Part shown: positions 3,352 to 22,747 of the stretch, piece after piece
Layout of the letters: the number at the start of each line of letters is the position of its first letter
Numbering within the stretch: position 1 is the first letter of the stretch
Source: Vulcanimicrobiota bacterium
GTDB lineage: Bacteria > Vulcanimicrobiota > Vulcanimicrobiia > Eremiobacterales > Eremiobacteraceae
Length of the DNA stretch: 54,305 bases
NCBI GenBank assembly: GCA_019237415.1
Contig: JAFAHD010000007.1
Coordinates: 1-54,305 of the forward strand
Reading direction: 5' to 3'
Made by a program: the position numbers and the translations under genes
The notes under the pieces: generated by a model
The model's input: the letters and a program-made list of their open reading frames with translations, nothing else
The model's database searches: none
What the model was told of the DNA's origin: nothing

Positions 3352-3371
3352 CGATTGTTCTCTCCTGTCGT

Positions 3372-4328
3372 CTAGTAGCGCCAGAGGTGGGCGTTCGCGG
3401 CGTCGGCGTGCGAGAGGCTCGCCGGGTGTGCGGCCGCCGCGGAGAACGGCGGGCAGGCGTTCTGCGGCTTGGGTGCGATTCCGAGTTGTGCCAACAACAG
3501 CTGGTTGTAGTAGCTCTGCGCGAAGATCTGATATCCTGCGGCATTCGGGTGGAACCCGTCGGCCGAGAAGTTCGCCGCGACGTACGATCTCGGGTCGCAG
3601 CGCAGGTCGACGACCGCCGCAACGCTCGTCCCAGCCATCGGATTGATGACCTGCGTGTCGAGCGCGATCGAGACCTCGGCGAGGAGCGCGCGCACGCCCG
3701 CGGGCTGCGTCGTTCCAACGGGGATCAATGAGAAATTCGGCAGGTTTGAGACCACGATGGTGACGCCAGGAGGGCTCGCGGCCTTGATTCCTTGCACAAG
3801 GGTGTTGTAGTCGGCGCCGAATTTCGCGATCTCCGCAGCGATGAACGGTTGCGGATTCCCGCCGCCCATCGCGATGCCGACCGCGCACGCGACGATCGCG
3901 TTGGTGTCGTTGCCGCCGGCGAAGATCGTCACGACGTTGGACTGCGCGTTCACGACCGGCAGTTCATTCGTGATGAAGTTGCCTGGCGCACCGAAGCACA
4001 GCGCGGTGTCGGCTTGGATGTCGGGACCGATGACGGCGCCCGAGATGCCAAGGTCGAACAGATTGACCTGCGCGCGCGGTCCAGTCAGCATGCCCGCCAA
4101 CACCGGCACGTACCCATTGCCGCCAGGACAGCTGGGCGGTGAAGGCATCGGCGGCACGCCAGCGGTCGGACACTGCACCGCGCCCACGCCGACGGCATCG
4201 CTCGCGCCGACCGCCGTGTACGTGCGAACCGCTGGGACTGGCAGCACGCTGTTCCCACTCGGCGATGTGCAGCCGAACAGCGTGGCGACGACCAGACTGA
4301 CGGCAAGTGCCGAACCGATCCGGCGCAT
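3372..4328 (-). CDS. SGNH/GDSL-family hydrolase lipoprotein
   Basis: ATG at 4328 is preceded by GAGGAG. MRRIGSALAVSLVVATLFGC is a lipobox. The SGNH blocks are present: GASDAVGVG, IFAGGNDTN, and DGFHPN near the C-terminus. Confidence 0.75.
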   Translation of the reverse strand: MRRIGSALAVSLVVATLFGCTSPSGNSVLPVPAVRTYTAVGASDAVGVGAVQCPTAGVPPMPSPPSCPGGNGYVPVLAGMLTGPRAQVNLFDLGISGAVIGPDIQADTALCFGAPGNFITNELPVVNAQSNVVTIFAGGNDTNAIVACAVGIAMGGGNPQPFIAAEIAKFGADYNTLVQGIKAASPPGVTIVVSNLPNFSLIPVGTTQPAGVRALLAEVSIALDTQVINPMAGTSVAAVVDLRCDPRSYVAANFSADGFHPNAAGYQIFAQSYYNQLLLAQLGIAPKPQNACPPFSAAAAHPASLSHADAANAHLWRY

Positions 4329-5430: not shown

Positions 5431-6669
5431 TTAGCTGAGGACGGGTTTGGGAGACTTCTCCTCGTCGGCTTTGATGCCGGCCGCTTCGCGCAACGTCTTA
5501 GCTAAGTCGACGCGTTCCCATGGCAGGTCGAGCTCGGGCCGGCCGAAGTGGCCGTAGGCCGATACTTGGCTGTAGATCGGGCGGCGCAGATCGAAACGCT
5601 CGATGATCGCGCCGGGGCGCAGGTCGATGAACCGCTGCACGAGCTCTGCGATGCGCGCCTCGTCGATGCGGCCCGTGCCGAAGCAATCGACGTAGACGGA
5701 CACCGGTTTGGCAACGCCGATCGCGTAGGCGATTTGAATCTCGCAGCGATCGGCGAGACCTGATGCGACGACGTTCTTCGCGGCGTACCGTGCGGCATAC
5801 GCCGCTGAACGGTCGACTTTCGTCGGATCCTTGCCGGAAAAGGCGCCGCCGCCGTGGCGCGCCATGCCCCCATACGTGTCCGCGATGATCTTGCGTCCGG
5901 TAAGCCCCGCATCGCTCAGCGGTCCGCCGATCACAAAGCGACCAGTCGGATTGATGAAGACCCTGGTGTTCTTATCGAGCAGGCGCGCGTCGATGGCCGC
6001 GTCGATGACATGTTCTTTGATGTCCGAGCGGATGCCATCGATCGGATGGCCGTCGACGTGTTGCGCTGAAACCACGATCGTATCGACTCTGACGGGCTCG
6101 AAGCCGTCGTACTCCACCGTGACTTGAGTCTTGCCGTCTGGCCCGAGAAAACCGATGACGCCTTTCTTCCGGACCTCAGCCAAGCGACGCGTGAGCCGGT
6201 GCGCGAGCACGATCGGCATCGGCATCAGCTCCGGCGTCTCGCGGCATGCAAAGCCGAACATCATGCCTTGGTCGCCGGCGCCGACTGACTCTGCGGCAGA
6301 CTTGGCTGCCGGACCGTCGCCCTTGACTTCGAGGGCTTTGTCCACGCCCAACGCGATATCCGCGGATTGCTCGTCGATGGAGATCGAAAGCCCGCACGTG
6401 TCGGCGTCAAAACCGAACTTGTTGCCGGTGTAGCCGATGTCGCGAACCGTCTTGCGCGCGATGCGCGGGATGTCGATATAGCACCCCGTCGTGATCTCGC
6501 CCGCAACGTGGACCTGGCCCGTGAGCACCATTGTCTCGCACGCGACGCGACCGAATGGATCCTGCGCGAGGATCGCGTCGAGCACCGCGTCGGAGATCGC
6601 GTCCGCGACCTTGTCGGGGTGCCCTTCGGTGACGCTTTCGGAGGTGAACAAGCGCTTGTGAGTTGCCAT
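5431..6669 (-). CDS. metK: S-adenosylmethionine synthetase
   Basis: [27 protein letters not shown]..., plus [12 protein letters not shown] and [16 protein letters not shown] motifs. The internal ATG at 6669 is preferred over the track start. Confidence 0.95.
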
Positions 6670-6680
6670 CGAAACCTTCT

Positions 6681-8021
<1,341 letters not shown>

Positions 8022-8082: not shown

Positions 8083-8718
8083 GTGACGCTTTCGACAAGC
8101 AGCATCGACTCGTATGTGCGCGCACTCGCGTCGGCCGATCCAACGCCGGGCGGCGGCAGCGCCAGCGCGCTCGTCGGCGCGCTTGCGGCAGCGCTGGCGT
8201 CGATGGTCGCCAGGCTGACGGCGTCCTCACCCAAATTCGCGCCGCTCGCAGAGCCGATGGGCGCCATCGCCGATCAAGCTGCGCGCTTGATGGACGCGCT
8301 GCTCGCCGCCATCGACGCTGACGTGGCGGCCTTCGATGCCGTGAGCGCCGCCTACAAGCTTCCGAAGTCGAGCGACGCGGAGCGCGCGGCACGCAGCGAC
8401 GCCATCCAACTCGCACTGGTCGGCGCCACCGACGCGCCCATGCACGTGGTTGAGCTGTGCGCACAGGTCGCCAAGCTCGCGGTCGAGCTGGTCGATGCCG
8501 GCAACCCGAACGCGATCAGCGACGCCGGCTGCTGCGCGCTGTTCGCCCACGCTGCCGCGCGCGGCTGCGCGCTCAACATCAGGCTGAACGTGAAGGGCCT
8601 CAAGAGCAGCATAGTCGCCGATTCGTATCGCAAGCAAATCGACGAATTGCTCGCCCAGATCGGCATCTTGGCTGAAGTCGCCGTCGTCAAAGCCGAGCAC
8701 GCGACGGAGCCGGCGTAG
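8083..8718 (+). CDS. cyclodeaminase-domain protein (FTCD C-terminal-like; formiminotetrahydrofolate cyclodeaminase / methenyl-THF cyclohydrolase type)
   Basis: SIDSYVRALASADPTPGGGSASALVGALAAALASMV is the hallmark of the cyclodeaminase domain. The in-frame GTG at 8083 is preferred. The track start at 8017 adds an Arg/Gly-rich extension. Confidence 0.75.
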   Translation: MTLSTSSIDSYVRALASADPTPGGGSASALVGALAAALASMVARLTASSPKFAPLAEPMGAIADQAARLMDALLAAIDADVAAFDAVSAAYKLPKSSDAERAARSDAIQLALVGATDAPMHVVELCAQVAKLAVELVDAGNPNAISDAGCCALFAHAAARGCALNIRLNVKGLKSSIVADSYRKQIDELLAQIGILAEVAVVKAEHATEPA

Positions 8719-8723
8719 CGGCC

Positions 8724-9575
8724 ATGCCGGCGCGCATCCTCGAAGGCAAGCCGATCGCCCAGCGCATCCGTGCCGACGTCGCCAACCGCGCGTACGAGCT
8801 TCGCGACAATGCGATCGTGCCGCAGCTGAGCATCTTCGTCGGCGAAGGCGACGAGGAGGGCACCTACTACGCGAACAGCCTCAACAAGATCGGCTCTCGC
8901 TGCGGCATCGACGTGTCGATCGACACGATAGCCCGCGGCGGCGGCACCAAAGCATTCTGTGCCGCGGTCGCAAGAGCGGCAGCCAATCACAAAGTGCACG
9001 GCATCATCATCCAGCGGCCGTTGCCGACCGAGTTCGAGCACATCGAGATCACGCGCGCGATTCCAGTGGAGAAAGATGTCGACGGCGAGACCGCACTGTC
9101 GATCGGCTGGCTCGCGCAAGGCGTGCCGCATTTCGTGCCCGCGACCGCCGCCGCCGTCATCGAAGTCTTGCGCGAACCGGGTCTTCCGCAGATCGCCGGC
9201 GCGCGCACCGTCGTGATCGGCCGTTCGGCCGTCGTCGGCCGTCCGGTCGCGTATATGCTCACCGCCGCCGATGCCACGGTCACCTTATGTCATTCGCGCA
9301 CGCGCGACCTCGAGATGATCTGCCGCAGCGCTGACATCGTCGTCGCCGCGATCGGCAAACCGCGCTTCGTCGGCGCCGGCATGATCAAACGCGGCAGCGT
9401 CGTCGTCGACGTCGGCACCAATCTCATCGACGGACAGGTCGTCGGAGACGTCGACGCTGAATCGGTTTCGCAAATCGCCGGCGCGCTCACGCCGGTGCCC
9501 GGTGGTGTCGGCGTCGTCACGACATCCATTCTGCTGCGCAACGTGATCGCCGCCGCCGAGCACGGCACCATCTAG
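8724..9575 (+). CDS. folD: bifunctional methylenetetrahydrofolate dehydrogenase/methenyl-THF cyclohydrolase
   Basis: MPARILEGKPIAQRIRADV..., VHGIIIQRPLP, GRSAVVGRPVA and TPVPGGVGVVT motifs. Confidence 0.93.
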   Translation: MPARILEGKPIAQRIRADVANRAYELRDNAIVPQLSIFVGEGDEEGTYYANSLNKIGSRCGIDVSIDTIARGGGTKAFCAAVARAAANHKVHGIIIQRPLPTEFEHIEITRAIPVEKDVDGETALSIGWLAQGVPHFVPATAAAVIEVLREPGLPQIAGARTVVIGRSAVVGRPVAYMLTAADATVTLCHSRTRDLEMICRSADIVVAAIGKPRFVGAGMIKRGSVVVDVGTNLIDGQVVGDVDAESVSQIAGALTPVPGGVGVVTTSILLRNVIAAAEHGTI

Positions 9576-13013: not shown

Positions 13014-14492
13014 TTATTGCGAGAGCTGCTTGATGTACGCGCGCGCTTTGGCCGCGCCGTCGCCTGAGGGCTGCAGCGCGAGGTAGGCCTTGTATGCTGC
13101 GACCGCATCCGGCTTGTCGCCGAGCATCCGGTTCGCGTCGCCGAGGAAGAACCATACCTGCGCATCGGGATGCTTGGGGTCCTGATGCGTGGCGATCGCC
13201 TCGAACGCGTCGCGCGCGTTGCGGTAATCCTTGAGCGAGTAGAACGCGACCGCCAGGTTGTAGAGCGCGGTCGCCGAGTGCGTGGTCTCGAACGTCTTTT
13301 GGAAGTCATCGCGGGCCTGCGCCCAATTGCCCATGGTGCCGTAGGCTTCACCCGCGAAGAACAGCGCGTCGGGGTTGTTCGGGTCCTTGGCGAGTATCTT
13401 GTTGAACTGCTCGAGCGCCTTGCTCGGATTGTGCAGCCCACCGAGCTGCAGCCGGCCGTACTCGAAGAGGATGCGCGGGTCGTCCGGCGTGATGGCGAGC
13501 GCCTGCTCGAACTCCTGCGCTGATTGCTGCCAGCGCTTCTGGTTTTGATCGTACTCGGCTTGCAGCACGTACGGCTCGGTGGCTTTGGGGTGGTCCTTTT
13601 CGGCGAGCGCGAATTCTTGGCGCGCCTGATCGATCATGTTCTTCGAGAGGTACAGCTCGGCGATGTCGTCCTCGGGCTCGACCGCGGTGGGCTGCATCTT
13701 GACGATAGAGGTCAGCAGCGCCACCGCGCCGTTGATATCGCCCTTGTCGGCCAGCGCCTCAGCCTTTGCGTGCAGTGCTTCGACGTCTTTCGGATCGCCC
13801 TTGAGGATGATGTCGAACTGCGCGATGGCGAGATCGGGCTGCGGCGTCTTGTCCGCCAGATACGAGCGGCCGAGGATCATGTGCGCGCGGTCGTCGGTCG
13901 GATCCATCGTGAGCGACTTGATGACGTTCGCCCGGCCTTCTTCCGTCTGGCCCTTGTCGAGTTGCACGGTGCCGAGCGCGAGATAGCCGAACGCTTCGGT
14001 GGGATGCAGCGCCACCGCGCGCTGCGCGATGCGCATCGCGTCGTCTGATCTGTTGACCGCGAGATAGGCGTCCGCCAGGTTGGAGAGGACGGCGGGGTTG
14101 CTCGGATCGGCGAGCTCGGCCTTTTCGAACGCGGTCACCGTATCAGGCATGTCGTTGAGCATGCGATCGGCGACGCCGATGTAGAACCAGAGTTGCGCAT
14201 CGTTCGCGCCCAGTCGAACGGCGTTCTCAAGCTGGTCGCGGCCCCCCGACGCATTGCCGGTGGTTATGAGCAGCACGCCGAGCTCTTCCCGAGCCTCCTT
14301 GTCGTTGGGGTTGTCCTGGATGGTCTGCTGCAGCGTCTTTATCCGCTCTTGCGGCGTCTCGGTGGGCGATTCGGAGGGGGACGGGCTTACGCTCGAGGCG
14401 GGCTTGGGTTTTGCGAACGCCGCGGGCGGCGTCTGAGAAAAGGCCGCGAGGCCACACGCGAGCAGGCAAAGGACGATGAAGATTCGGTGCAA
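13014..14492 (-). CDS. tetratricopeptide-repeat lipoprotein
   Basis: MHRIFIVLCLLACG is lipobox-like, followed by about 10 TPR-like 34-aa repeats (..A...F.KAL...P....A...LG..Y). Confidence 0.8.
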   Translation of the reverse strand: MHRIFIVLCLLACGLAAFSQTPPAAFAKPKPASSVSPSPSESPTETPQERIKTLQQTIQDNPNDKEAREELGVLLITTGNASGGRDQLENAVRLGANDAQLWFYIGVADRMLNDMPDTVTAFEKAELADPSNPAVLSNLADAYLAVNRSDDAMRIAQRAVALHPTEAFGYLALGTVQLDKGQTEEGRANVIKSLTMDPTDDRAHMILGRSYLADKTPQPDLAIAQFDIILKGDPKDVEALHAKAEALADKGDINGAVALLTSIVKMQPTAVEPEDDIAELYLSKNMIDQARQEFALAEKDHPKATEPYVLQAEYDQNQKRWQQSAQEFEQALAITPDDPRILFEYGRLQLGGLHNPSKALEQFNKILAKDPNNPDALFFAGEAYGTMGNWAQARDDFQKTFETTHSATALYNLAVAFYSLKDYRNARDAFEAIATHQDPKHPDAQVWFFLGDANRMLGDKPDAVAAYKAYLALQPSGDGAAKARAYIKQLSQ

Positions 14493-14514: not shown

Positions 14515-15495
14515 CTAGGCGTTCGCGCGACGTTCCTTGACGAGGGTGGTCAGCTCGGGCACGATCTGGAAAAGGTCGCCGACGACGCCAAGGTCTGAGA
14601 ATTCGAAGATCGGGGCGTTCGGGTCTTTGTTGATGGCCACGATCGTGCCGGCCGAACGCATGCCGACCTTGTGCTGGATCGCCCCCGAGATCCCCACCGC
14701 GATGTACAGCTGGGGCGACACGGTCTTGCCGGTCTGGCCGACCTGGTGCGAGTGCGGGATCCAGCCCGCATCGACTGCGGCGCGCGACGCGCCGACCGCG
14801 CCGCCCAGGGCTTCGGCAAGCGCTTCGATGATATCGAAATGCTCTGGCCCGCCCAGCCCGCGCCCGCCCGAAACGACGATGCCCGCCTCCTCGACGCCGA
14901 GCTTGCCCGCCTCTTGCGATACTTTCTCTTCGACTGTCACCGCGTAGCTCTTGCCGGCAGGGCTCTGCAGCTGCTTGATCTCTCCCTTGCCAGGCTCTTG
15001 GCGCGCGATGAAGCTGTTCGCGCGGCAGGTGAGCACGCCGTAGTCCGAGTTTTTGAACGCCTTGGTGGCGATCACCGAACCGCCGAACTTCGGCGATTGC
15101 GCGCTGATGACGCCGTCCTTGACGGCGATGTCGGTAACGTCAGTGATGACGCCCGCGCTCAGGCGGACACCGATCCGCGCGGCGATGTCCTTGCCAAGGT
15201 TGGTGAGCGGAAAGAGCGCCACGCTGGGGCCCAATTGTTTGAGCAGCGCTTCGACTGCATCGACGGCCGGGTCGTTCAAGTGGGCGTCGACGAGGTTGTC
15301 CTCGCTCACCCAAATCGCGTCTATCGGCGTCGATTTCAGCGGCTCCGCAGCCTTGCTCGCCCCTTTGCCGAGGACGACTGCCGCCGACGGCACGCCGAGC
15401 TCCTTGGCGATATCCGCACCGCGCGTGCACATCTCGAGGCCGATGCGCCGGATCGCGCCGTCCTCGTGTTCGACAAAGACCAAGACTGATTTCAT
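14515..15495 (-). CDS. etfA: electron transfer flavoprotein alpha subunit
   Basis: MKSVLVFVEHEDG..., with the C-terminal FAD-binding block VSPQLYIAVGISGAIQHKVGM. Confidence 0.93.
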   Translation of the reverse strand: MKSVLVFVEHEDGAIRRIGLEMCTRGADIAKELGVPSAAVVLGKGASKAAEPLKSTPIDAIWVSEDNLVDAHLNDPAVDAVEALLKQLGPSVALFPLTNLGKDIAARIGVRLSAGVITDVTDIAVKDGVISAQSPKFGGSVIATKAFKNSDYGVLTCRANSFIARQEPGKGEIKQLQSPAGKSYAVTVEEKVSQEAGKLGVEEAGIVVSGGRGLGGPEHFDIIEALAEALGGAVGASRAAVDAGWIPHSHQVGQTGKTVSPQLYIAVGISGAIQHKVGMRSAGTIVAINKDPNAPIFEFSDLGVVGDLFQIVPELTTLVKERRANA

Positions 15496-15502
15496 CGACG
15501 CT

Positions 15503-16294
15503 TTAGACCACCTTCTTGGCGATCAGGAAGTCGAGGATCTGTTTTGCGCCTTCCTTAGGATCGGACACGCTGATGACTTGGCCTTTCTGGCGCGCACCGA
15601 CCGCGGCATACGACTCCATGACCGTCTTGCTGCCCGCTTCGCCGAGCTTGCCCGCCTCGGCGCCGATCTCCGCAAGCGTCGGCGTCTTGATCTCCTTTTT
15701 CTTGGCGCCCATGATGCCTTTGAGCGTCGGATAGCGCGGTTCGTTGATCGCCTTGGTGACGGAGACGAGCGCCGGCAGCGGCGCGCGCACGCGCAGATAG
15801 CCGGTCTCCGTCTCGCGTTGCGCTTCGACCGCGCCGTCAGCGATGGTCAGCTTCTTCACGTAGGTGAGGCACGGGACCCCGAGGTGCTCTGCGACCGCGG
15901 CGGGCACGACGCTGCAAATGGCGTCCGTGCTCTGCGTGCCGGAGAGCACGAGGTCGAATCCGATGTTCTTGAGCGTTTGCGCGAGCACGTACGCGGTGGC
16001 CATCGCGTCGCTGCCGCCGATGGCATCGTCTGAGAGCAACACCGCATTGTCGGCGCCCATGCCGAGCGCCTTGCGCACGACGTCGGTCGCAGTCGGCGGC
16101 GCCATGGTGAGAATTGTGACCGTGGTGTCGGCGCCCTGCGCTTCTTTGATGCGCAATGCTTCCTCGATCGCATACTCGTCGAAGGGATTAAGGACGTTCT
16201 CGATCGTGGTGCGGTTCAACCGCCCGGTGGCCGGATCGAACGTCTTTTCGGCGTTCGTATCGGGCACTTGCTTCACGGTGACGACGATCTTCAA
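15503..16294 (-). CDS. etfB: electron transfer flavoprotein beta subunit
   Basis: MKIVVTVKQVPDTNAEKTFD..., typical EtfB sequence. It lies directly upstream of etfA. Confidence 0.93.
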   Translation of the reverse strand: MKIVVTVKQVPDTNAEKTFDPATGRLNRTTIENVLNPFDEYAIEEALRIKEAQGADTTVTILTMAPPTATDVVRKALGMGADNAVLLSDDAIGGSDAMATAYVLAQTLKNIGFDLVLSGTQSTDAICSVVPAAVAEHLGVPCLTYVKKLTIADGAVEAQRETETGYLRVRAPLPALVSVTKAINEPRYPTLKGIMGAKKKEIKTPTLAEIGAEAGKLGEAGSKTVMESYAAVGARQKGQVISVSDPKEGAKQILDFLIAKKVV

Positions 16295-16345
16295 GTCGTG
16301 GGGCTCCAGAACGAAGTTGACCTCGCGGTCGCCGCGGTGGACAGA

Positions 16346-16363
16346 CGCGGCCGTTCGGCCGCG
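16346..16363 (-). terminator. GC hairpin (CGCGGCC-GAAC-GGCCGCG) between the hydrolase-fold gene and etfB; possible U-tract-less terminator or 5'UTR structure
   Basis: Perfect 7-bp stem with a 4-nt loop, read directly in the 184-nt intergenic region. No U-tract follows. Confidence 0.25.
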
Positions 16364-16478
16364 CGAGAGACTGCGATGCGTGGAACGCGCCGGGCTTCTT
16401 CCCGGGCGGCCCTGCGCCCCTGCCGCCGCTGTGCGCTAGGTCGGCTTGGGCGCTTCGCTTTGGCCCTGAGGCCGGCGC

Positions 16479-17801
16479 CTACGGATGCGCCGGCAACGTG
16501 CTCAGGAAGTTCTTGATGGCGGCATTGAGCGCGTCCGGCTGGTCGAGCATCACGAAGTCTTTCGAGTTCGCGATCGTCTGGACCGTGACGTTGCGCGCGC
16601 CGGCATACTCGGACGCGTAGTAGTTGCGTACGGTCGCCGTGAGCTGATCCGGCGTGAGCGCCCGCAGCCGATCGTTCATGTACGGCGCTTGGCTGGAAAC
16701 CGGTGCGATGACAAGCAATGGCGCCGTGACGGTGCCTAAGTTCGGGCGCAGATCTTCGAGCGACATCTCGCTCATCGCGCCGGCGACGGTGGCGCGGTCG
16801 CTGCGCAAGGAGTGCGCGGCGACGTTTTGCGCTTGGGCGGTGTCGGTCACCATCGTCGCGATCGTCGATTGCAACTGATCCTGGTACAGCCAATCGGGCG
16901 CCGATACGATGCCGTCCGTAAACGATGCGATGCTTTGCGCTCGCTGCTCGACGGTTTGGCCGGCTTGCAACGGCGGAAAGAACGGGGTCTGGTCGACGAT
17001 GACCGCACCCGCAAACGCATCTGGATGTTCTTCCATCAAACGCAGCGCGAGATGACCGCCGAAACCGTGACCCACGAGCACCGGCCGCTTTAGCTGCTCT
17101 TGCGCGACGAGCTTCATGACAGCCGCGTCGGCTTGCTGCAAATACGGCGGCGAGGCCGGTGTTGTGCCGTCGAAACCCGCTATGGTCGCCGCGTAGATGA
17201 CGCGATCGGTCGCAAACGCACCGATCGTGCTCTGCCACTCCCACGCGCTCATCGAGAGTGCGGGAATGAGGATGAGCGCTGGCGCGGGATCGTTCGCGGG
17301 ACCATACTTGTCGAAACGAACCGTGCCGATCGGGATGCTTTGCGTCGGAGCGGTGACGACCGGCGATGCCAACGCGACACCGCTAAAGGCACCCCAGAGC
17401 GCACCGGAACACAAGGTAAGCCCACCAAGACCGATGATTGCGAACGCCACGGCAAAAGCTTGAAGGAAGCTTGGATGTCGCGACCTGGGTGCCCACCATC
17501 GGTACGCCATGAACGCCAGAATGGCGAGCGCGACGTCCACGACGATGACGGTGATGCTCATTCCGATACGCGATGGCCGCCCCTGCGAACTAAGCCCTGC
17601 CGCGAGGCCCAGTACTGCCAGCACCGTACCGACGATGCCGCCGAGGAAGCAGCCGGCAAACCCGTACTGGAACGCGTACGGATCGCGCGCCGGCGTCAAC
17701 CCTGGTGTAGCCGGCTGCGCAAGCGCAACTGCGTGGCCGCAGTTCGGGCAGGTCGTCGCCGACGGTTCTAGTGGACCGCCGCAGTGTGCGCAATTCGCGA
17801 T
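16479..17801 (-). CDS. zinc-ribbon + multi-TM + alpha/beta-hydrolase-fold protein lacking the nucleophile serine; start inferred at ATC
   Basis: The track ORF starts at TTG 17699. The in-frame upstream sequence reads IANCAHCGGPLEPSATTCPNCGHAV, a CxxC...CxxC zinc ribbon, with AAAGGAG 8 nt before ATC at 17799-17801. Four hydrophobic helices follow, then an alpha/beta fold whose elbow reads VGHGFGG rather than GHSxGG. Confidence 0.7.
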   Translation of the reverse strand: MANCAHCGGPLEPSATTCPNCGHAVALAQPATPGLTPARDPYAFQYGFAGCFLGGIVGTVLAVLGLAAGLSSQGRPSRIGMSITVIVVDVALAILAFMAYRWWAPRSRHPSFLQAFAVAFAIIGLGGLTLCSGALWGAFSGVALASPVVTAPTQSIPIGTVRFDKYGPANDPAPALILIPALSMSAWEWQSTIGAFATDRVIYAATIAGFDGTTPASPPYLQQADAAVMKLVAQEQLKRPVLVGHGFGGHLALRLMEEHPDAFAGAVIVDQTPFFPPLQAGQTVEQRAQSIASFTDGIVSAPDWLYQDQLQSTIATMVTDTAQAQNVAAHSLRSDRATVAGAMSEMSLEDLRPNLGTVTAPLLVIAPVSSQAPYMNDRLRALTPDQLTATVRNYYASEYAGARNVTVQTIANSKDFVMLDQPDALNAAIKNFLSTLPAHP

Positions 17802-18457
17802 GGCGCCATCTCCTTTGCGGCCAGTTCCATCATCTTATACGCGAAGAACGCGAGCCCGGCCAAGCAAGCGTACTGCGCGAGCGTGAGCCCGGCCAGCAGC
17901 GCCGGTCCTTCTCGGAAGAACTCGATCGCAAACCGCGAGCTGCACAGCAGCAGCCCCTGGAGATAGAACAGCGCGTTCTCAGGCAGGGGTTTGCGATGCA
18001 GCTGCCACAGGACGATGAATATCGCGGTGGCAGCCAGCGCCAGATAGGCCTGTGTCGGATGGCGATACGCGCCGTGCTCGTATACCGCCCACGGAAGGCC
18101 AGTCGCGATCTTGCCGTAGCAGCATTGACCGAAGAAACAACCCCAGCGTCCGACGGCCTCTCCAGCGGCGAGGCCCATCGCGAACAAGTCGCCGGTCGGA
18201 CGTACGATGCCGAGATACCGCTTCATGAGCACGACGGCGATGTAGCCGCAGACGATTCCGCCCAACAGCGTCTTGCCTGGCGAGCCGGTCGCGATCAATT
18301 GCGTGAGGTTCGCGCCGGCGAGTCCACCGACGAGCCCCGCGCTCATGAGCATCCAGACGCCGGTCGTCGCGATGCCGCGGCGGCGCGCCATGTAGCCGAA
18401 CGCCGCGAGCCCCGCGAGGTAGCCGAGCGCGTAACACACAGCAGAAACGACGATCAT
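17768..18457 (-). CDS. Lgt-family (prolipoprotein diacylglyceryl transferase-like) membrane protein, short divergent paralogue
   Basis: Polytopic protein with GRWGCFFGQCCYGK at the position of the Lgt GRxGNFxNxE motif, plus YRHPTQAYLAL and RFAIEFFRE blocks. It is only 229 aa. Confidence 0.75.
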   Translation of the reverse strand: MIVVSAVCYALGYLAGLAAFGYMARRRGIATTGVWMLMSAGLVGGLAGANLTQLIATGSPGKTLLGGIVCGYIAVVLMKRYLGIVRPTGDLFAMGLAAGEAVGRWGCFFGQCCYGKIATGLPWAVYEHGAYRHPTQAYLALAATAIFIVLWQLHRKPLPENALFYLQGLLLCSSRFAIEFFREGPALLAGLTLAQYACLAGLAFFAYKMMELAAKEMAPSRIAHTAAVH

Positions 18458-18469
18458 GCGGACATCTCC

Positions 18470-18718
18470 TTAGTGCATTCCACCATTTCCAAGGTTGCTG
18501 CATATCGCGAGCGCACCAAGGAACAACGCGACCGGCACGAGCACCGCGCAGCCCACGAACGAGCCGAGAACTATTATCCAGGTCCTGTTCTTTCGCGCGA
18601 GGTAGCGTTGCCGCTCAGGCGAGAGATTGAACGATCCGCAGTTGGGGCAGACCGACATGTTCGCCTGCAGCGGCTTGCCGCAATGTTCGCACGGCGTGTC
18701 CAAGCGCCGGTCAGCCAC
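18470..18718 (-). CDS. zinc-ribbon domain membrane protein (82 aa)
   Basis: GTG start overlapping the upstream stop. CEHCGKPLQANMSVCPNCG is followed by one TM segment, WIIVLGSFVGCAVLVPVALFLGALAI. Confidence 0.6.
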   Translation of the reverse strand: MADRRLDTPCEHCGKPLQANMSVCPNCGSFNLSPERQRYLARKNRTWIIVLGSFVGCAVLVPVALFLGALAICSNLGNGGMH

Positions 18719-18983
18719 GGAAGAACTGCCAATACACTTGAAATGCGGCGATGCCGGCCATCGCGATGACGACCCAGGGTGGTTTCACGAAGCAGCGCCA
18801 CTCGCGCACGCCGGACGCGGCGGCATACAGATACAGTCCGGTCGCGATCGCCGCGGTCGCGAGCAGCGTGTACTTGCCGAAGAGCAGCGCCAAGAAGGCA
18901 GCCTTGCAGAACGTGAACGCCCAGCCTTCGACCATCTCGCCGCGCTGACGCCTGGCTTCGAGGGCCGGATTGTCAACCGCCAT
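18711..18983 (-). CDS. small two-TM membrane protein (90 aa), unknown function
   Basis: The ATG overlaps the radical SAM stop by 11 nt. There are two hydrophobic segments (FLALLFGKYTLLATAAIATGLYLYAAA and PPWVVIAMAGIAAFQVYW). Confidence 0.5.
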   Translation of the reverse strand: MAVDNPALEARRQRGEMVEGWAFTFCKAAFLALLFGKYTLLATAAIATGLYLYAAASGVREWRCFVKPPWVVIAMAGIAAFQVYWQFFRG

Positions 18984-20505
18984 GGTACATCGCTACCTCC
19001 GCACGGGTCGTCGCGCCCTCAAGCGCCTTGCTGCGCACCTTGGGGAACAGCCGCGCCGCACAGAACGGCATGCGCACCGGATCGTTGCCGGCGCTCCCGA
19101 CATGGACGCAGCACTGTTCGAGGCGCTCCGAGATCAGCGTGTCGGCGTCCATGAAATGTTTGATCGTGATGCGCTTGACGCGATTGCCGACGAAATCATG
19201 CGACGCGTCTTTGCGGAACGCCGCGCCGATCAGCGCCGCGACGCCGCCGAAGTCGCATGCGGTGCACAGCGACGCCAAATGTCCCACGAGCTCGGGCCGT
19301 GAGAGCGTCATGGACTCGGACATCAGTCCCGCCAACGCGTCGCGGACGATCGTCAAGGTATCGGCGAACGCGATCGTGTTGCCCACGACGCCAAGGTTCG
19401 CACGCAACACGTCGTGGCCGACCAGCCGCGCGAGACTGCGATACGAGCCGTCGTTGCCTTTGACGACGTAGCCGATAGAGCAGCAATCGGGATGGCTGCA
19501 GGGCAAAGCGATGAGATCGTCCGCCTTCACTCGCGAACACTGGCTCTCGATGCGACGCAGGACGCCGGTCGTCGTCACCCGGTCCATCGAGTCGAATCGC
19601 GGCGCGCGGCCCGAGCCGAACACCGGCTGGAACATCACGCCACCGACGAACGGCGTGCCGAGTGCCGTGTCGAGCACCTCGCCGATCAGGTCCTGGTTCT
19701 CGCGCGTCACGACCATGACCAACGTGGTGAACACACCTGCAGCCGACAGCCGCTCGAGCACGCGACGCTTGATCTCGCGCAGGTCCTGCCCGCGCAGCTG
19801 TATGTGGGTTTGCTCGCGCTGTCCGTCGTACTGCAGGTACACTTCGATGCGTTTGCGGTGGTCGTGCAAGAACGCGACGAACTCTTTGTCGCTCGCGATG
19901 CGAATGCCGTTCGTGTTGAGCAGCACGCGCGTGACGGGCAGCGCGGCGAGCTCGCGCAAGATTTCGACGATCTGCGGATGGACGGTGGGCTCGCCGCCGC
20001 TGATCATCACCACATCGAGGCGTCCGCCTTCGCGCTCGATCGCGGTGTGAACCGAGCGAAGGATGCTCTCCACGGGCAGGTAGTGCGTCTGCTTCGGACC
20101 TGACTGCGCATAACACGCTGGACACGACAGGTTGCATTGCGACGTGATGTCGAGCAAAAAGATGCACGTGTGCTGCAGGTGCGCGGGCCCGAGGCCATGC
20201 TCGTAGCCGGTTGGGGGCGGAAACAGCTCGCGCGTGTCGGCGTTGATGATCTTGGTCGGCACGCGCCACTGCTGCAAGTACTGCCACAGCTCGAGGTCTT
20301 CTTCGTACAGCGACCATACTTCGCCATGACCGCGCCGGCAGTAGCGGCGCAGATAGATCTTGCCGTCGCGCGTGACCAGATGCCCGTCGGCGATGTCGTC
20401 GGGCCACTGCGGATCGAAGGCCGGGTCGTCTGCGAAGCAGCGCGGGCAAACCGCGCGAACGCTCTTGAGCACGGTGTAGTCGTTGACCGCGAGCGCCATG
20501 TGCAT
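18973..20505 (-). CDS. radical SAM enzyme with N-terminal zinc-ribbon/rubredoxin-like module (MJ0619/Tes-like architecture)
   Basis: ITSQCNLSCPACYA is a CX3CX2C motif, and GGEPTVHP is a SAM-binding block. The N-terminus reads VCPRCF...GHLVTRDGKIYLRRYCRRGHGE. The C-terminus reads RITIKHFMDADTL..RLEQCCVHVG....RMPFCA. Length is 510 aa. Confidence 0.85.
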   Translation of the reverse strand: MHMALAVNDYTVLKSVRAVCPRCFADDPAFDPQWPDDIADGHLVTRDGKIYLRRYCRRGHGEVWSLYEEDLELWQYLQQWRVPTKIINADTRELFPPPTGYEHGLGPAHLQHTCIFLLDITSQCNLSCPACYAQSGPKQTHYLPVESILRSVHTAIEREGGRLDVVMISGGEPTVHPQIVEILRELAALPVTRVLLNTNGIRIASDKEFVAFLHDHRKRIEVYLQYDGQREQTHIQLRGQDLREIKRRVLERLSAAGVFTTLVMVVTRENQDLIGEVLDTALGTPFVGGVMFQPVFGSGRAPRFDSMDRVTTTGVLRRIESQCSRVKADDLIALPCSHPDCCSIGYVVKGNDGSYRSLARLVGHDVLRANLGVVGNTIAFADTLTIVRDALAGLMSESMTLSRPELVGHLASLCTACDFGGVAALIGAAFRKDASHDFVGNRVKRITIKHFMDADTLISERLEQCCVHVGSAGNDPVRMPFCAARLFPKVRSKALEGATTRAEVAMYHGG

Positions 20506-20561
20506 GAGCTTGGCGCAACCGACTAGGGTCGCCTTTCGAGCGCCTTGAATGCACAGCGGCG

Positions 20562-21668
20562 ATGAAGATCACGGTGATCGGCGCCGGCATCAACGGCCTT
20601 TCGAGCGCGTGGGCGCTCACGCGCGATGGGCACGACGTCACGGTGATCGAGCAAGGAGCGATCCCAAATCCGCTCGCATCATCGAACGATCAGAACCGTT
20701 TGATCCGCTTTCCCTATGGTGCAAGCGAAGGCTACACGCGCATGGTGTCAGACGCATATCGCGCCTGGGACCTGATGTGGGCCGACCTTGGCGAGACGCT
20801 GTATGCTCGCACCGGCACGCTGGCGATCGCCCGCGACGAGGACAGCTGGACTGATTGGTCCGCGAACACACTCGCGCGGGTGGGCGTCGAGGCAACGCGC
20901 TTATCACCTGCCGACGTCGGACGCATCTTTCCGATGCTGCGAACAGACGGCATGCGCTATGCGCTGCACCTGGACTCGGGCGGCGAGCTCTTCGCGTCGC
21001 GCATCCTCGAGTCGCTGGCGCGTTTCTTGCCCGGCAAGGGCGCGCGTTTGCTGGAATCCACGCGGGTGGCGAGCATCGATGCGGTCACCGCCAAAGCCGT
21101 ACTCGAAGATGGTTCGGCGATCGACGCTGACGCGATCGTGGTCGCGGCCGGTCCGTGGGTGAGCCGGCTTGTTCCATCGCTGGCGGCGCGCGTCACGCCG
21201 TCGCGCCAAGTGGTCGCCTACGTTGAACCGCCGCCGCAGTATGCCGAGCATTGGCGCCACGGCCCGATGCTTATGGATCTCGACGGCGCTGGGTTCTATC
21301 TGGTCCCGCCCTACGGCGGCACCGACATGAAGGTCGGCGATCATCGTTTCAGCCTCACCGGGCAGCCCGACGCCGATCGCGAACCAGCGGAAGCCGAGGC
21401 GCGCGAGGTCTTCGAACAGGCTCGCAGGACGCTGCGCGACTTCGAGCAGTACCACATCAAATCGTCGCGCACGTGTTTCTACACCGTGCAGCCTGAGGAG
21501 CAATTCATCATCGAGCGGTTTGGCGCCGCGTGGGTGCTCAGCGCCTGCTCGGGCCACGGATTCAAGTTCGGCGCGCTCAACGGCCGCAACGTCGCGGACG
21601 GCATATCTGGACGACGCCCGTCTGAAGAAATCGCCGCATTCGCGGCTGGCGGGCTCGTTTCGCAATGA
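20562..21668 (+). CDS. FAD-dependent oxidoreductase (DAO family; sarcosine/N-methyl-amino-acid oxidase-like)
   Basis: MKITVIGAGINGLSSAWALTRDGHDVTVIE is a Rossmann GxGxxG fold, and a C-terminal SGHGFKFG block is typical of the DAO family. Confidence 0.85.
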   Translation: MKITVIGAGINGLSSAWALTRDGHDVTVIEQGAIPNPLASSNDQNRLIRFPYGASEGYTRMVSDAYRAWDLMWADLGETLYARTGTLAIARDEDSWTDWSANTLARVGVEATRLSPADVGRIFPMLRTDGMRYALHLDSGGELFASRILESLARFLPGKGARLLESTRVASIDAVTAKAVLEDGSAIDADAIVVAAGPWVSRLVPSLAARVTPSRQVVAYVEPPPQYAEHWRHGPMLMDLDGAGFYLVPPYGGTDMKVGDHRFSLTGQPDADREPAEAEAREVFEQARRTLRDFEQYHIKSSRTCFYTVQPEEQFIIERFGAAWVLSACSGHGFKFGALNGRNVADGISGRRPSEEIAAFAAGGLVSQ

Positions 21669-22747
21669 GCGCGCTTGATTGGCTGTCGCTCGCGATTGGC
21701 GCCGTCATCGTCGGATTGATGCTGTACGACGTGTTCGCCGCGGTCGTCGTACCGAGAATGGTCTCCCCGGCGCTGCGGCTGAGCGCAGGAGCCGTTCGCG
21801 GGACGTGGCTCGCGTGGCGCGCCTTTGCGCTGCGCATTCGCGACGCTGACCAGCGCGAAGATTTCCTAGGCCGCTTCGCGCCGTTCATGCTCGTCGCGTT
21901 GCTCGTCGCGTGGCTGATCGGCCTGCTGGTCGGGTACGGTCTGATCTTCTACGCGCTTCGAGCGCACACGCAGCCAGAGGTGCACAGCTTCATCGACGCG
22001 ATCTATTTCGCCGGTGCCTCGCTGCTGACGATCGGTTTTGGCGATATCGTCGCGACCGGGCACGTGACCAGGATGCTCACCCTCGCGGCGGGCGCGACGG
22101 GATTGGCGCTCTTCGCGCTCACCATCTCCTTCACGTTCTCCATCTTCGGATCGTTCCAAAAGCGGGAGATCTTCGTCGTTATGATGGGCGGTCGCGCAGG
22201 CGCGCCGCCGTCCGGTGTCACGCTGCTCGAGACGGCCTCGAAATTCCGTCTCTACGACGATCTTGCGCAGGCGCTGCGAGAAGCCGAGTCGTGGGCCGCC
22301 TCCGTGCTCGAGTCGCATCTCGCGTATCCCATCCTCATGTACTTCCGCTCCAGTCACGACGATGAATCGTGGATCGGAACGCTTGGCGCCATCTTGGACG
22401 CGTCAACGCTGCTGCTCACACTGACGGAGAGCCCGCTCGTCGGCCAGGCGAAGCTGTTTCATATCATGGGCGTCCACCTCGTCCGCGATCTTGCACACTA
22501 CTTCCACATCCCCGAGGAGGCCGACGTCGGCATCGAACGCTCGGAGTTCGACCAAGCGTGTGCCGCCCTCACCGCCGCCGGGTGGACGATTCGCGATGAC
22601 GACGCAGCGTGGGCGAGCTTCAGGGAAAACCGCGCGCGCTACGCGGGGCCGCTCAACGAAATGGCCCGATTCTGGGCGATCCCTCCCTCGCGCTGGATCG
22701 GTGACCGATCGACCATCGGCGTTCATTCGCACGCGCACACGACATAG
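21665..22747 (+). CDS. potassium-channel pore-domain protein with uncharacterised cytoplasmic C-terminal domain
   Basis: SLLTIGFGDIVATG is the K+ selectivity filter TxGxGD, flanked by TM helices. The ATG overlaps the upstream stop (ATGA). Confidence 0.8.
   Translation: MSALDWLSLAIGAVIVGLMLYDVFAAVVVPRMVSPALRLSAGAVRGTWLAWRAFALRIRDADQREDFLGRFAPFMLVALLVAWLIGLLVGYGLIFYALRAHTQPEVHSFIDAIYFAGASLLTIGFGDIVATGHVTRMLTLAAGATGLALFALTISFTFSIFGSFQKREIFVVMMGGRAGAPPSGVTLLETASKFRLYDDLAQALREAESWAASVLESHLAYPILMYFRSSHDDESWIGTLGAILDASTLLLTLTESPLVGQAKLFHIMGVHLVRDLAHYFHIPEEADVGIERSEFDQACAALTAAGWTIRDDDAAWASFRENRARYAGPLNEMARFWAIPPSRWIGDRSTIGVHSHAHTT

Follow-up and report, generated by a model that had tools for sequence, protein, structure and literature searches.

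A gene cassette linking a Tes-like radical SAM protein to a remodelled Lgt paralogue

[quoted passage not shown] We find that this enzyme belongs to the superfamily of the archaeal tetraether lipid synthase Tes, and that its gene is part of a conserved unit of four components: the radical SAM protein, a 90-aa membrane protein (p90), a paralogue of the diacylglyceryl transferase Lgt and a variable set of small membrane proteins. The cassette spans at least four bacterial phyla. Since the radical SAM and Lgt-like proteins are genetically linked, are fused in some organisms and have predicted folds that match Tes and Lgt, respectively, it appears that a Tes-type lipid-tail enzyme and an Lgt-type diacylglyceryl-binding protein work together. 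As a tentative reading, in which our confidence is somewhat short of even, we propose that the components form a complex in the membrane, in which radical chemistry of the Tes type acts on acyl tails, either those of a diacylglyceryl lipid or those of a lipoprotein anchor.

Conservation of the cassette

Flanks of at least 2.5 kb on either side of the radical SAM gene were available for 49 loci. When the six-frame open reading frames (ORFs) of these loci were searched with hidden Markov models (HMMs), the Lgt paralogue was found on the same strand in 46 of them and the p90 family in 41. With the Lgt paralogue present in 46 of the 49, the association is not a matter of chance. A preliminary description, made from the sequence of the window, had staked its proposal on such co-localisation in other genomes, which is thus borne out, with two gene fusions in addition. 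It had also treated all five genes as the unit; in this it went too far, as the fifth protein, with its α/β-hydrolase fold, is a genus-level addition to the four conserved components.

The linkage persists through four gene orders and through radical SAM sequences that are only 40-48% identical between clades. Scanning one genome per species gave 28 loci, of which 24 were labelled Eremiobacterota/Vulcanimicrobiota or by genera (Cybelea, Elarobacter, Baltobacteraceae) and four carried other or unspecific labels. By tblastn, the majority order in these 28 loci was Lgt, small transmembrane protein, radical SAM, p90; the window-type order was radical SAM, p90, p82 (an 82-aa protein), Lgt, zinc-ribbon transmembrane protein. 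An exhaustive search of representatives returned only three full-length outgroups, at 44-49% identity, below which matches fell to ~35%; a metagenome scan with one of these outgroups added 80 more loci. The radical SAM sequences fell into four clades (40-48% mutual identity), labelled as Eremiobacterota, Armatimonadota (Fimbriimonas and metagenome-assembled genomes (MAGs) of Chthonomonadaceae/Capsulimonadaceae), Chloroflexota (Herpetosiphonaceae, Chloroflexales) and Acidobacteriota (Thermoanaerobaculia). Cluster look-ups of the non-Eremiobacterota clades gave MAG labels only, with no cultured carrier among them. The cassette represents a widespread and distinct branch of the Tes superfamily with new partners; clustered at 90% identity, the sequences that score E ≤ 1e-60 make up at least 2,800 clusters.

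Two of the representatives, P0285 (733 aa) and P0318 (671 aa), combine the Pfam domains LGT, Zn_ribbon_HMPTM and Radical_SAM, in that order, in single polypeptides. This order fits a cytoplasmic C-terminus of the Lgt domain running directly into the radical SAM domain. The genes flanking the cassette vary by lineage (alanine racemase and GroES/EL; electron-transfer flavoprotein (ETF) and a flavin adenine dinucleotide (FAD) oxidoreductase; a pst/pho operon), which indicates that the cassette is self-contained. In L016 (~6000-7500), L055 and L085 a radical SAM protein of the family stands amid full flanks with neither an Lgt paralogue nor p90 within ~3.5 kb; the upstream genes of L016 encode other products, a membrane protein of 268 aa and a soluble one of 239 aa. 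A role in anti-phage defence was considered and rejected, as the PADLOC matches were generic viperin-core hits to the radical SAM domain only.

In the window, the ORF list confirmed the coordinates and the tight head-to-tail packing of the preliminary description, and all five genes, with the features described for them below, lie on the minus strand. The radical SAM gene (18973-20505; 510 aa) comes first; its product matches, at 100% identity, a MAG protein in NCBI that bears the label Candidatus Eremiobacteraeota. p90 (18711-18983; 90 aa) is translationally coupled to the radical SAM gene, its ATG overlapping the stop of the latter by 11 nt, and p82 (18470-18718; 82 aa, GTG start) overlaps p90 by 8 nt. 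After a gap of 12 nt follows the Lgt-like gene (17768-18457; 229 aa), which is overlapped over 34 nt by the fifth gene (16479-17801; 440 aa if it starts at an ATC codon).

The radical SAM protein and the Lgt paralogue

The radical SAM protein matched Pfam Radical_SAM at 71 bits and Zn_ribbon_HMPTM at 26.9 bits, just under the Pfam cut-off of 27. Its best NCBIfam model was TrsS (NF045646), with 210.1 bits against an equivalog cut-off of 490 that was not reached; the Tes model (NF045702) gave 176.5 bits (E = 7.5e-52), again below its equivalog cut-off of 450. Judged by NCBIfam score, the protein is neither TrsS nor Tes. Its best sequence match in the PDB was the M. jannaschii Tes (MJ0619), GDGT-MAS (7TOL), with E = 1.5e-34 for the single sequence and 5e-54 for the family profile. 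An AlphaFold2 (AF2) model built on a 50-sequence alignment (predicted local distance difference test (pLDDT) 83, predicted template modelling (TM) score 0.87; residues 379-406 of low confidence) matched 7TOM/7TOL over its full length, with TM-scores of 0.74-0.76 across ~540 alignment columns. This comparison with the Tes crystal structure had been suggested in the preliminary description, and the modelled fold includes a counterpart of the lipid-binding C-terminal half of GDGT-MAS. The remaining radical SAM structures fitted the core alone (TM-score ~0.35), leaving GDGT-MAS as the only whole-length match. The earlier assignment to the Tes/MJ0619 family thus stands for the superfamily but not for orthology with Tes, in view of the low score and of the residues that are absent, as set out below.

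All the motifs that had been called in the radical SAM protein were present in its sequence. The radical SAM motif CNLSCPAC (CX3CX2C; C124/C128/C131; 20113-20136) did not vary among 120 close homologues or among 50 sequences of the four clades. A rubredoxin-like site, C20X2C23X32C56X3H60 (CPRC...CRRGH, residues 20-23 and 56-60; 20437-20448 and 20326-20340), was invariant across the four clades and aligned with the N-terminus of 7TOL, which bears the equivalent site C9X2C12X20C33X2H36 (PMC9433317). In the C-terminal cluster region IKHFMDA...CCVH...PFC (residues 448-482; 19060-19164), C465, C466 and C482 were likewise invariant across the clades and aligned with CCIH...PFC of 7TOL; in GDGT-MAS this cluster bears an S-C substrate intermediate (PMC9433317).

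Other sites had changed. GDGT-MAS has a surface cluster, [Fe4S4]N, with C73, C77, C80 and a His as ligands in a CPxDCGLCPxH motif (PMC9433317). The corresponding site in the window, GYEHGLGPAHLQHTC (20164-20208), is degenerate: HGLG (GYEHGLGPAH) stands in place of the CGLC of Tes-like relatives and all three Cys are gone, so that the preliminary observation of a missing cluster just ahead of the SAM motif was correct. These Cys were lost in all four Lgt-linked clades, none of which has the CPxDCGLC motif, and are kept in relatives at 30-34% identity. The fusion protein P0285 does retain an N-terminal cluster motif (CPFDCGLCPAH). Linkage to Lgt is therefore not confined to the clades without [Fe4S4]N, and the loss and the linkage are not strictly coupled. 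At the positions of Tes Met439 and Tyr459, the window protein has Lys449, which is invariant, and Val469. Six further Cys are invariant in the family and not found in MJ0619, namely 114, 336, 341 and 342 (the last three at 19480-19503) and 414 and 417 (19255-19266).

Many homologues carry the legacy JGI name 7,8-dihydro-6-hydroxymethylpterin dimethyltransferase, which would make the protein a cofactor enzyme. The name goes back to the original assignment of MJ0619, which the authors of the GDGT-MAS study failed to corroborate and replaced by a role in lipid synthesis (PMC9433317). Moreover, all the conserved partners described here are membrane proteins, and we regard a pterin enzyme as hardly credible.

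The Lgt-like protein (229 aa, seven transmembrane helices) matched Pfam LGT (PF01790) at 84.9 bits, well above the cut-off of 24.9, and the sole significant PDB match of its AF2 model (pLDDT 88) was E. coli Lgt (5AZB; TM-score 0.76). In the E. coli enzyme the active site faces the periplasm, H103GGL is the proposed site for the lipobox peptide, and G142, R143, G145, G154, R239, E243 and R246 bind phosphatidylglycerol/diacylglycerol (PG/DAG) and do not tolerate mutation (PMC4728403). Alignment to 5AZB showed that the equivalents of G142, R143, G145, G154, RHPxQxY and R239/E243/R246 are all kept, with RHPTQAY at 18044-18064 and R175FAIE179FFR182 at 17912-17935; R104, R175, E179 and R182 (R143, R239, E243 and R246 in E. 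coli) were invariant both in 31 and in 120 homologues. The peptide site is different: KTLLGG (18257-18274) replaces HGGL, with Leu65 at the position of His103, and the ~50-aa periplasmic head domain (E151-P197) is lacking, leaving ~20 residues between the fourth and fifth helices. The signature GRWGC107FFGQC112C113YGK (18110-18151) places Cys at the positions of Asn146, Glu151 and Leu152, and all three were invariant in 120 of 120 close homologues. Across the clades, the Asn146 to Cys change is the only universal one and is present in both fusion proteins; Glu151-Leu152 is replaced by Cys-Cys in two clades, and the P0244 clade has just one of the three signature Cys. Loop charges predict the same topology as in E. 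coli Lgt, with the Cys motif at the outer-leaflet end of the fourth helix.

An Fe-S cluster shared between the subunits, in which the three signature Cys and C114 of the radical SAM protein would stand in for the lost [Fe4S4]N, was rejected on three counts: the positive-inside rule and homology to E. coli Lgt both put the Cys triad at the periplasmic end of the fourth helix; the P0244 clade has only one of its members; and the fusion P0285 keeps CGLC.

The Lgt-like protein might also be the housekeeping Lgt of the carrier phyla, in which case the radical SAM enzyme would act on general lipoprotein anchors or be unrelated. The organism does have ordinary lipoproteins and should thus need a housekeeping Lgt, since a 492-aa tetratricopeptide-repeat (TPR) protein (13014-14492, minus strand) begins with MHRIFIVLCLLAC, followed by G, a canonical lipobox (LLAC); and no second Lgt-family ORF was present in the window or in the collected loci. 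However, an absence that covers only 54 kb of the genome weighs little. The protein also fails the equivalog cut-off of TIGR00544 (49.1 against 118.9 bits), lacks His103 and has Cys for Glu151, both positions at which substitution inactivates E. coli Lgt, and has Cys for Asn146, a conserved member of the active-site hydrogen-bond network (PMC4728403). Its fusion to the radical SAM protein points instead to a dedicated partner. We therefore consider a housekeeping role quite improbable.

The small membrane proteins, the fifth gene and the neighbouring genes

The zinc-ribbon and two-helix partners, like the Lgt-like protein, proved to be as the preliminary description had them. p90 matched no Pfam or NCBIfam family, yet it is the best conserved of the small partners: an HMM built from the loci recovered it in 74 of 115 loci from six-frame ORFs. 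Two family-invariant Cys, in FTFC26K (18903-18923; F-C) and GVREWRC64 (18792-18812; R-x-C), flank a hydrophobic stretch of ~33 aa with a central G-K/R or GPP turn, and one more transmembrane helix follows. The stretch would fold back on itself as a hairpin, and both Cys would then face the cytoplasm, on the side of the basic residues.

p82, with homologues in L003 and L004, has an N-terminal zinc ribbon (18638-18691; weak zinc-ribbon Pfam matches) and a single transmembrane helix (18500-18580) that ends in LGALAIC73 and is followed by a 9-aa tail, SNLGNGGMH. Accessory proteins of this kind, mostly zinc-ribbon membrane proteins, occur in 1-4 tandem copies, evolve fast and cannot be aligned between clades. 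They nevertheless share a recurrent ending. Among 31 from the Eremiobacterota and P0244 clades, 25 have a C-terminus made up of a hydrophobic helix, then a Cys and at most 20 further aa; in the Armatimonadota-type P0243 clade a helix that ends G-[AST]-C comes after the zinc ribbon, and by our own count [GAS]-C lies right behind the first helix in 14 of 19. A lipobox reads [LVI][ASTVI][GAS]C and marks the point where a hydrophobic helix, its N-terminus inside, reaches the outer side. Since the zinc ribbon and basic residues are predicted to be inside, by the positive-inside rule only, the helix-end Cys would be placed where a lipobox Cys meets the active site of Lgt. In one Eremiobacterota sub-lineage (L018-L021), multi-spanning proteins of 116-171 aa take the place of the zinc-ribbon accessory protein downstream of p90; these share a conserved motif, (I/V)P(W/I)PC, and have another Cys that lies 1-3 residues before the C-terminus.

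Numerous, tandem (up to 3-4 copies) and fast-evolving proteins with a conserved Cys near the C-terminus resemble precursor peptides. This raises the alternative of a protein-directed system akin to those for peptides that are synthesised ribosomally and modified post-translationally (RiPPs), in which the small membrane proteins are substrates that the radical SAM enzyme cross-links or modifies and the Lgt paralogue lipidates. Indeed, the RiPP maturase SkfB was the next PDB match after GDGT-MAS in both sequence and fold. However, the likeness to SkfB is confined to the radical SAM core (TM-score 0.36), no SPASM or RRE domain was found in the radical SAM protein, and the C-terminal half of the latter matches the lipid-binding domain of GDGT-MAS. 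In addition, the conserved Cys and the tail are predicted to be periplasmic, beyond the reach of a cytoplasmic enzyme. Taken together, these points make the RiPP-like alternative improbable.

The fifth gene has an unusual start. Its first codon at 17801 is ATC, with no in-frame ATG, GTG or TTG upstream of the region encoding a zinc ribbon (CAHCGG...CPNCGH; 17739-17792); the first canonical start is a TTG at 17699, and a standard gene caller would begin there and drop the ribbon. A Shine-Dalgarno sequence (AAGGAG) lies 8 nt ahead of the ATC, the two together covering 17799-17815 and overlapping the Lgt-like gene at its 3' end, and the same arrangement recurs in L003 (~3365-3382), L004 (~8700-8719; AAGGAA) and L023 (~8850-8870), whose proteins are 60-85% identical. 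We therefore accept the ATC as a credible start: the position given in the preliminary description stands, although the codon is not a canonical one. A programmed frameshift joining the Lgt-like and fifth genes was considered and set aside; there is no slippery heptamer, and the conserved Shine-Dalgarno-N8-ATC arrangement fits better.

Downstream of the zinc ribbon are three transmembrane helices, the last ending GLGGLTLC131SG (17403-17432). This count, based on hydropathy and positive-inside reasoning rather than a topology predictor, corrects an earlier one of four. The predicted periplasmic remainder is an α/β-hydrolase-fold domain (PF12697, 55.8 bits) in which GHGFGG (17055-17072) aligns with the GHSMGG of a solved hydrolase, so that Gly replaces the nucleophile Ser, as it does in L003; the description as a pseudo-hydrolase was therefore apt. 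In L004 and L023 the zinc-ribbon/three-helix protein ends 4-7 aa past the Cys, and L004 encodes the α/β domain in an ORF of its own. From these sequences, the pseudo-hydrolase is a late, genus-level fusion onto a small zinc-ribbon membrane protein and lies outside the core of the cassette.

Genes for the β and α subunits of ETF (14515-16294, minus strand) lie on the same strand, 184 bp downstream of the fifth gene, and are syntenic in L003 and L004. Since other lineages lack them, they probably do not belong to the cassette, although ETF might conceivably donate electrons to the radical SAM enzyme. On the other side, a gene for a FAD-dependent oxidoreductase (20562-21668) diverges from the radical SAM gene across a 56-bp spacer. 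Its stop is overlapped by the ATG of a 360-aa membrane protein (21665-22747, plus strand), in which LTIGFGD resembles the selectivity-filter motif of K+ channels; this gene pair is syntenic in L004. A promoter and terminator scan of 16000-20900 gave no signal beyond that expected from shuffled sequence, and tRNA and Rfam scans of the window returned no matches.

A proposed mechanism and its relation to known systems

The linkage of a remodelled Lgt to the radical SAM protein, at times as one polypeptide, suggests that radical chemistry on lipids and the handling of diacylglyceryl groups go together at the membrane; we encountered such a pairing nowhere in the searched literature. In the mechanism that we tentatively favour, the components would form one inner-membrane complex. 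At the outer leaflet, the Lgt-fold subunit would hold a diacylglyceryl lipid inside its central cavity, since the R143/R239/E243/R246-type network, which in E. coli Lgt binds PG/DAG and activates it, is kept, and would probably move the diacylglyceryl group onto the lipobox-like Cys of p82 and of the N-terminal module of the fifth protein. The radical SAM enzyme would sit on the cytoplasmic face, anchored through p90, with which it is co-translated, and, in some organisms, through fusion to the cytoplasmic C-terminus of the Lgt domain. There, its 5'-deoxyadenosyl radicals would take hydrogen from the ends of the acyl tails; the first substrate radical would be parked on the kept C-terminal [Fe4S4] cluster, as in GDGT-MAS, and a C-C (or C-S) bond would then be made. 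The product would be a tail-linked diacylglyceryl lipid, macrocyclic or membrane-spanning, either free or serving as the anchor of the small proteins.

Several findings weigh against this mechanism. The chief difficulty is one of geometry, as the Lgt site is periplasmic and the radical SAM enzyme cytoplasmic, so that the enzyme would need to get at the tails from across the bilayer or inside it. With His103 and the HGGL peptide site lost, activity as a transferase cannot be taken for granted, and the lipobox-like sequences of the window, LAIC in p82 and LTLC in the fifth protein, both deviate from the consensus at position -1. The replacement of Met439 and Tyr459 removes two residues that are strictly conserved in 1000 archaeal homologues, although the M439A and Y459F/L variants of GDGT-MAS are still active in vitro (PMC9433317). 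As to the loci themselves, the Lgt paralogue is missing from 3 of the 49 with full flanks (L016, L055 and L085), and no conserved lipid genes (fatty-acid, Ger/PlsA ether-lipid or other) stand beside the cassette. Finally, the one cultured Eremiobacterota strain, an aerobe rich in iso-C14:0 and with unidentified polar lipids, yielded only ordinary iso-C14 acids by MIDI, a method that is blind to dimers (PMC9758169).

The main rival is a pure membrane-spanning-lipid synthase doing the job of Tes or Mss, the latter a bacterial enzyme that joins phospholipid tails, with the Lgt-like protein as an anchor or lipid presenter that transfers nothing and the small proteins as anchors or regulators. The full-length Tes fold with its catalytic C-terminal cluster would be expected of such an enzyme, as would an Lgt-like protein stripped of His103/HGGL and of its head domain. 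The carriers also belong to soil and peat phyla, Acidobacteriota MAGs included, and the iso-diabolic acid synthase of aerobic Acidobacteria is still to be found (PMC13159169). However, the Acidobacteriota matches are Thermoanaerobaculia MAGs rather than the producers of subdivisions 1, 3, 4 and 6 (SD1/3/4/6); known producers of brGDGTs (branched glycerol dialkyl glycerol tetraethers) have much closer Tes homologues, at 40-42% identity; and no membrane-spanning lipids are reported for the Eremiobacterota, Armatimonadota or Chloroflexota carriers. A pure synthase also leaves unexplained the recurrent helix-end Cys of the accessory proteins and the universal change of Asn146 to Cys. We consider it unlikely, if still a serious contender.

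Tail-to-tail coupling of lipids is known from archaeal Tes and from the Mss of anaerobes, whereas the enzyme of aerobic soil bacteria is unidentified; brGDGT lipids serve as palaeoclimate proxies, and most of their producers are also unidentified (PMC13159169, PMC13274423). A bolder, rather unlikely extension of our proposal is that bacteria have in the cassette a third route, independent of the others, to lipids linked tail to tail, in which an Lgt-docked, Tes-like radical SAM enzyme stitches acyl chains across the bilayer in mostly aerobic soil and peat phyla. It would yield diacylglyceryl lipids that span the membrane or are macrocyclic, and these might be covalently attached to small zinc-ribbon proteins as their anchor, giving a 'bola-lipoprotein'. 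If so, the carriers would be candidate producers of the orphan bacterial membrane-spanning lipids of iso-diabolic/brGDGT type, with the cassette as a set of marker genes for them. Should the product be something other than a spanning lipid, the cassette would nonetheless show the Lgt fold in a new role and add p90 as a new family of partner proteins.

The preliminary description knew of no characterised operon that matched, and we likewise found no description of the cassette, or of any system pairing Lgt with a radical SAM enzyme, in the searched literature; a 2026 review of lipid-modifying radical SAM enzymes mentions neither Lgt nor lipoproteins (PMC13459092). The nearest relative of known function is GDGT-MAS/Tes (MJ0619; 7TOL, 7TOM; NF045702), which binds E. 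coli ester phospholipids (PMC9433317). It shares with the window protein a four-domain fold, CX3CX2C, the rubredoxin-like CX2C...CXnH and the C-terminal HFMDA...CC.H...PFC. In contrast, the two proteins are only ~22-25% identical, and the window protein has lost the equivalents of C73/C77/C80, has Lys for Met439, Val for Tyr459 and Ile for Cys438, and has gained six extra invariant Cys. It is also bacterial and accompanied by an Lgt paralogue and p90, partners that the cited Tes papers do not describe. The bacterial Tes homologues of Solibacter and Koribacter, which have been tied to brGDGT production, are 40-42% identical to archaeal Tes (PMC8941075; bioRxiv 10.1101/2022.04.07.487437), and the family described here is far more distant from Tes than these.

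TrsS (NF045646), of the same superfamily, is itself uncharacterised and appears in a selenoprotein review only as a listed entry (PMC13188914). Relatives whose scores fall between the TrsS and Tes models have the PC..P.C and C..C motifs in common with the window protein, but retain the CPxDCGLCPxH that it lacks. Mss (T. maritima Tmari_0825; T. ethanolicus WP_129545148.1) is a radical SAM enzyme of reportedly Tes-like catalytic architecture that joins the tails of ester-linked fatty acids in phospholipids (PMC13274423); it is restricted to anaerobes (Thermotoga, Thermoanaerobacter) and is missed by BLAST with Tes (PMC13159169). Since the Tes model finds the window protein and Tes BLAST misses Mss, the two would be different branches, set apart here through Tes searches rather than by direct comparison. 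Mss also works alone in E. coli, whereas the window protein comes with partner genes. Of these partners, the Lgt paralogue shares with E. coli Lgt (5AZB; TIGR00544; PF01790) the seven-helix fold and the predicted topology, but differs from it in lacking the head domain and His103, in carrying Cys for Asn146 and in being genetically locked to a radical SAM enzyme.

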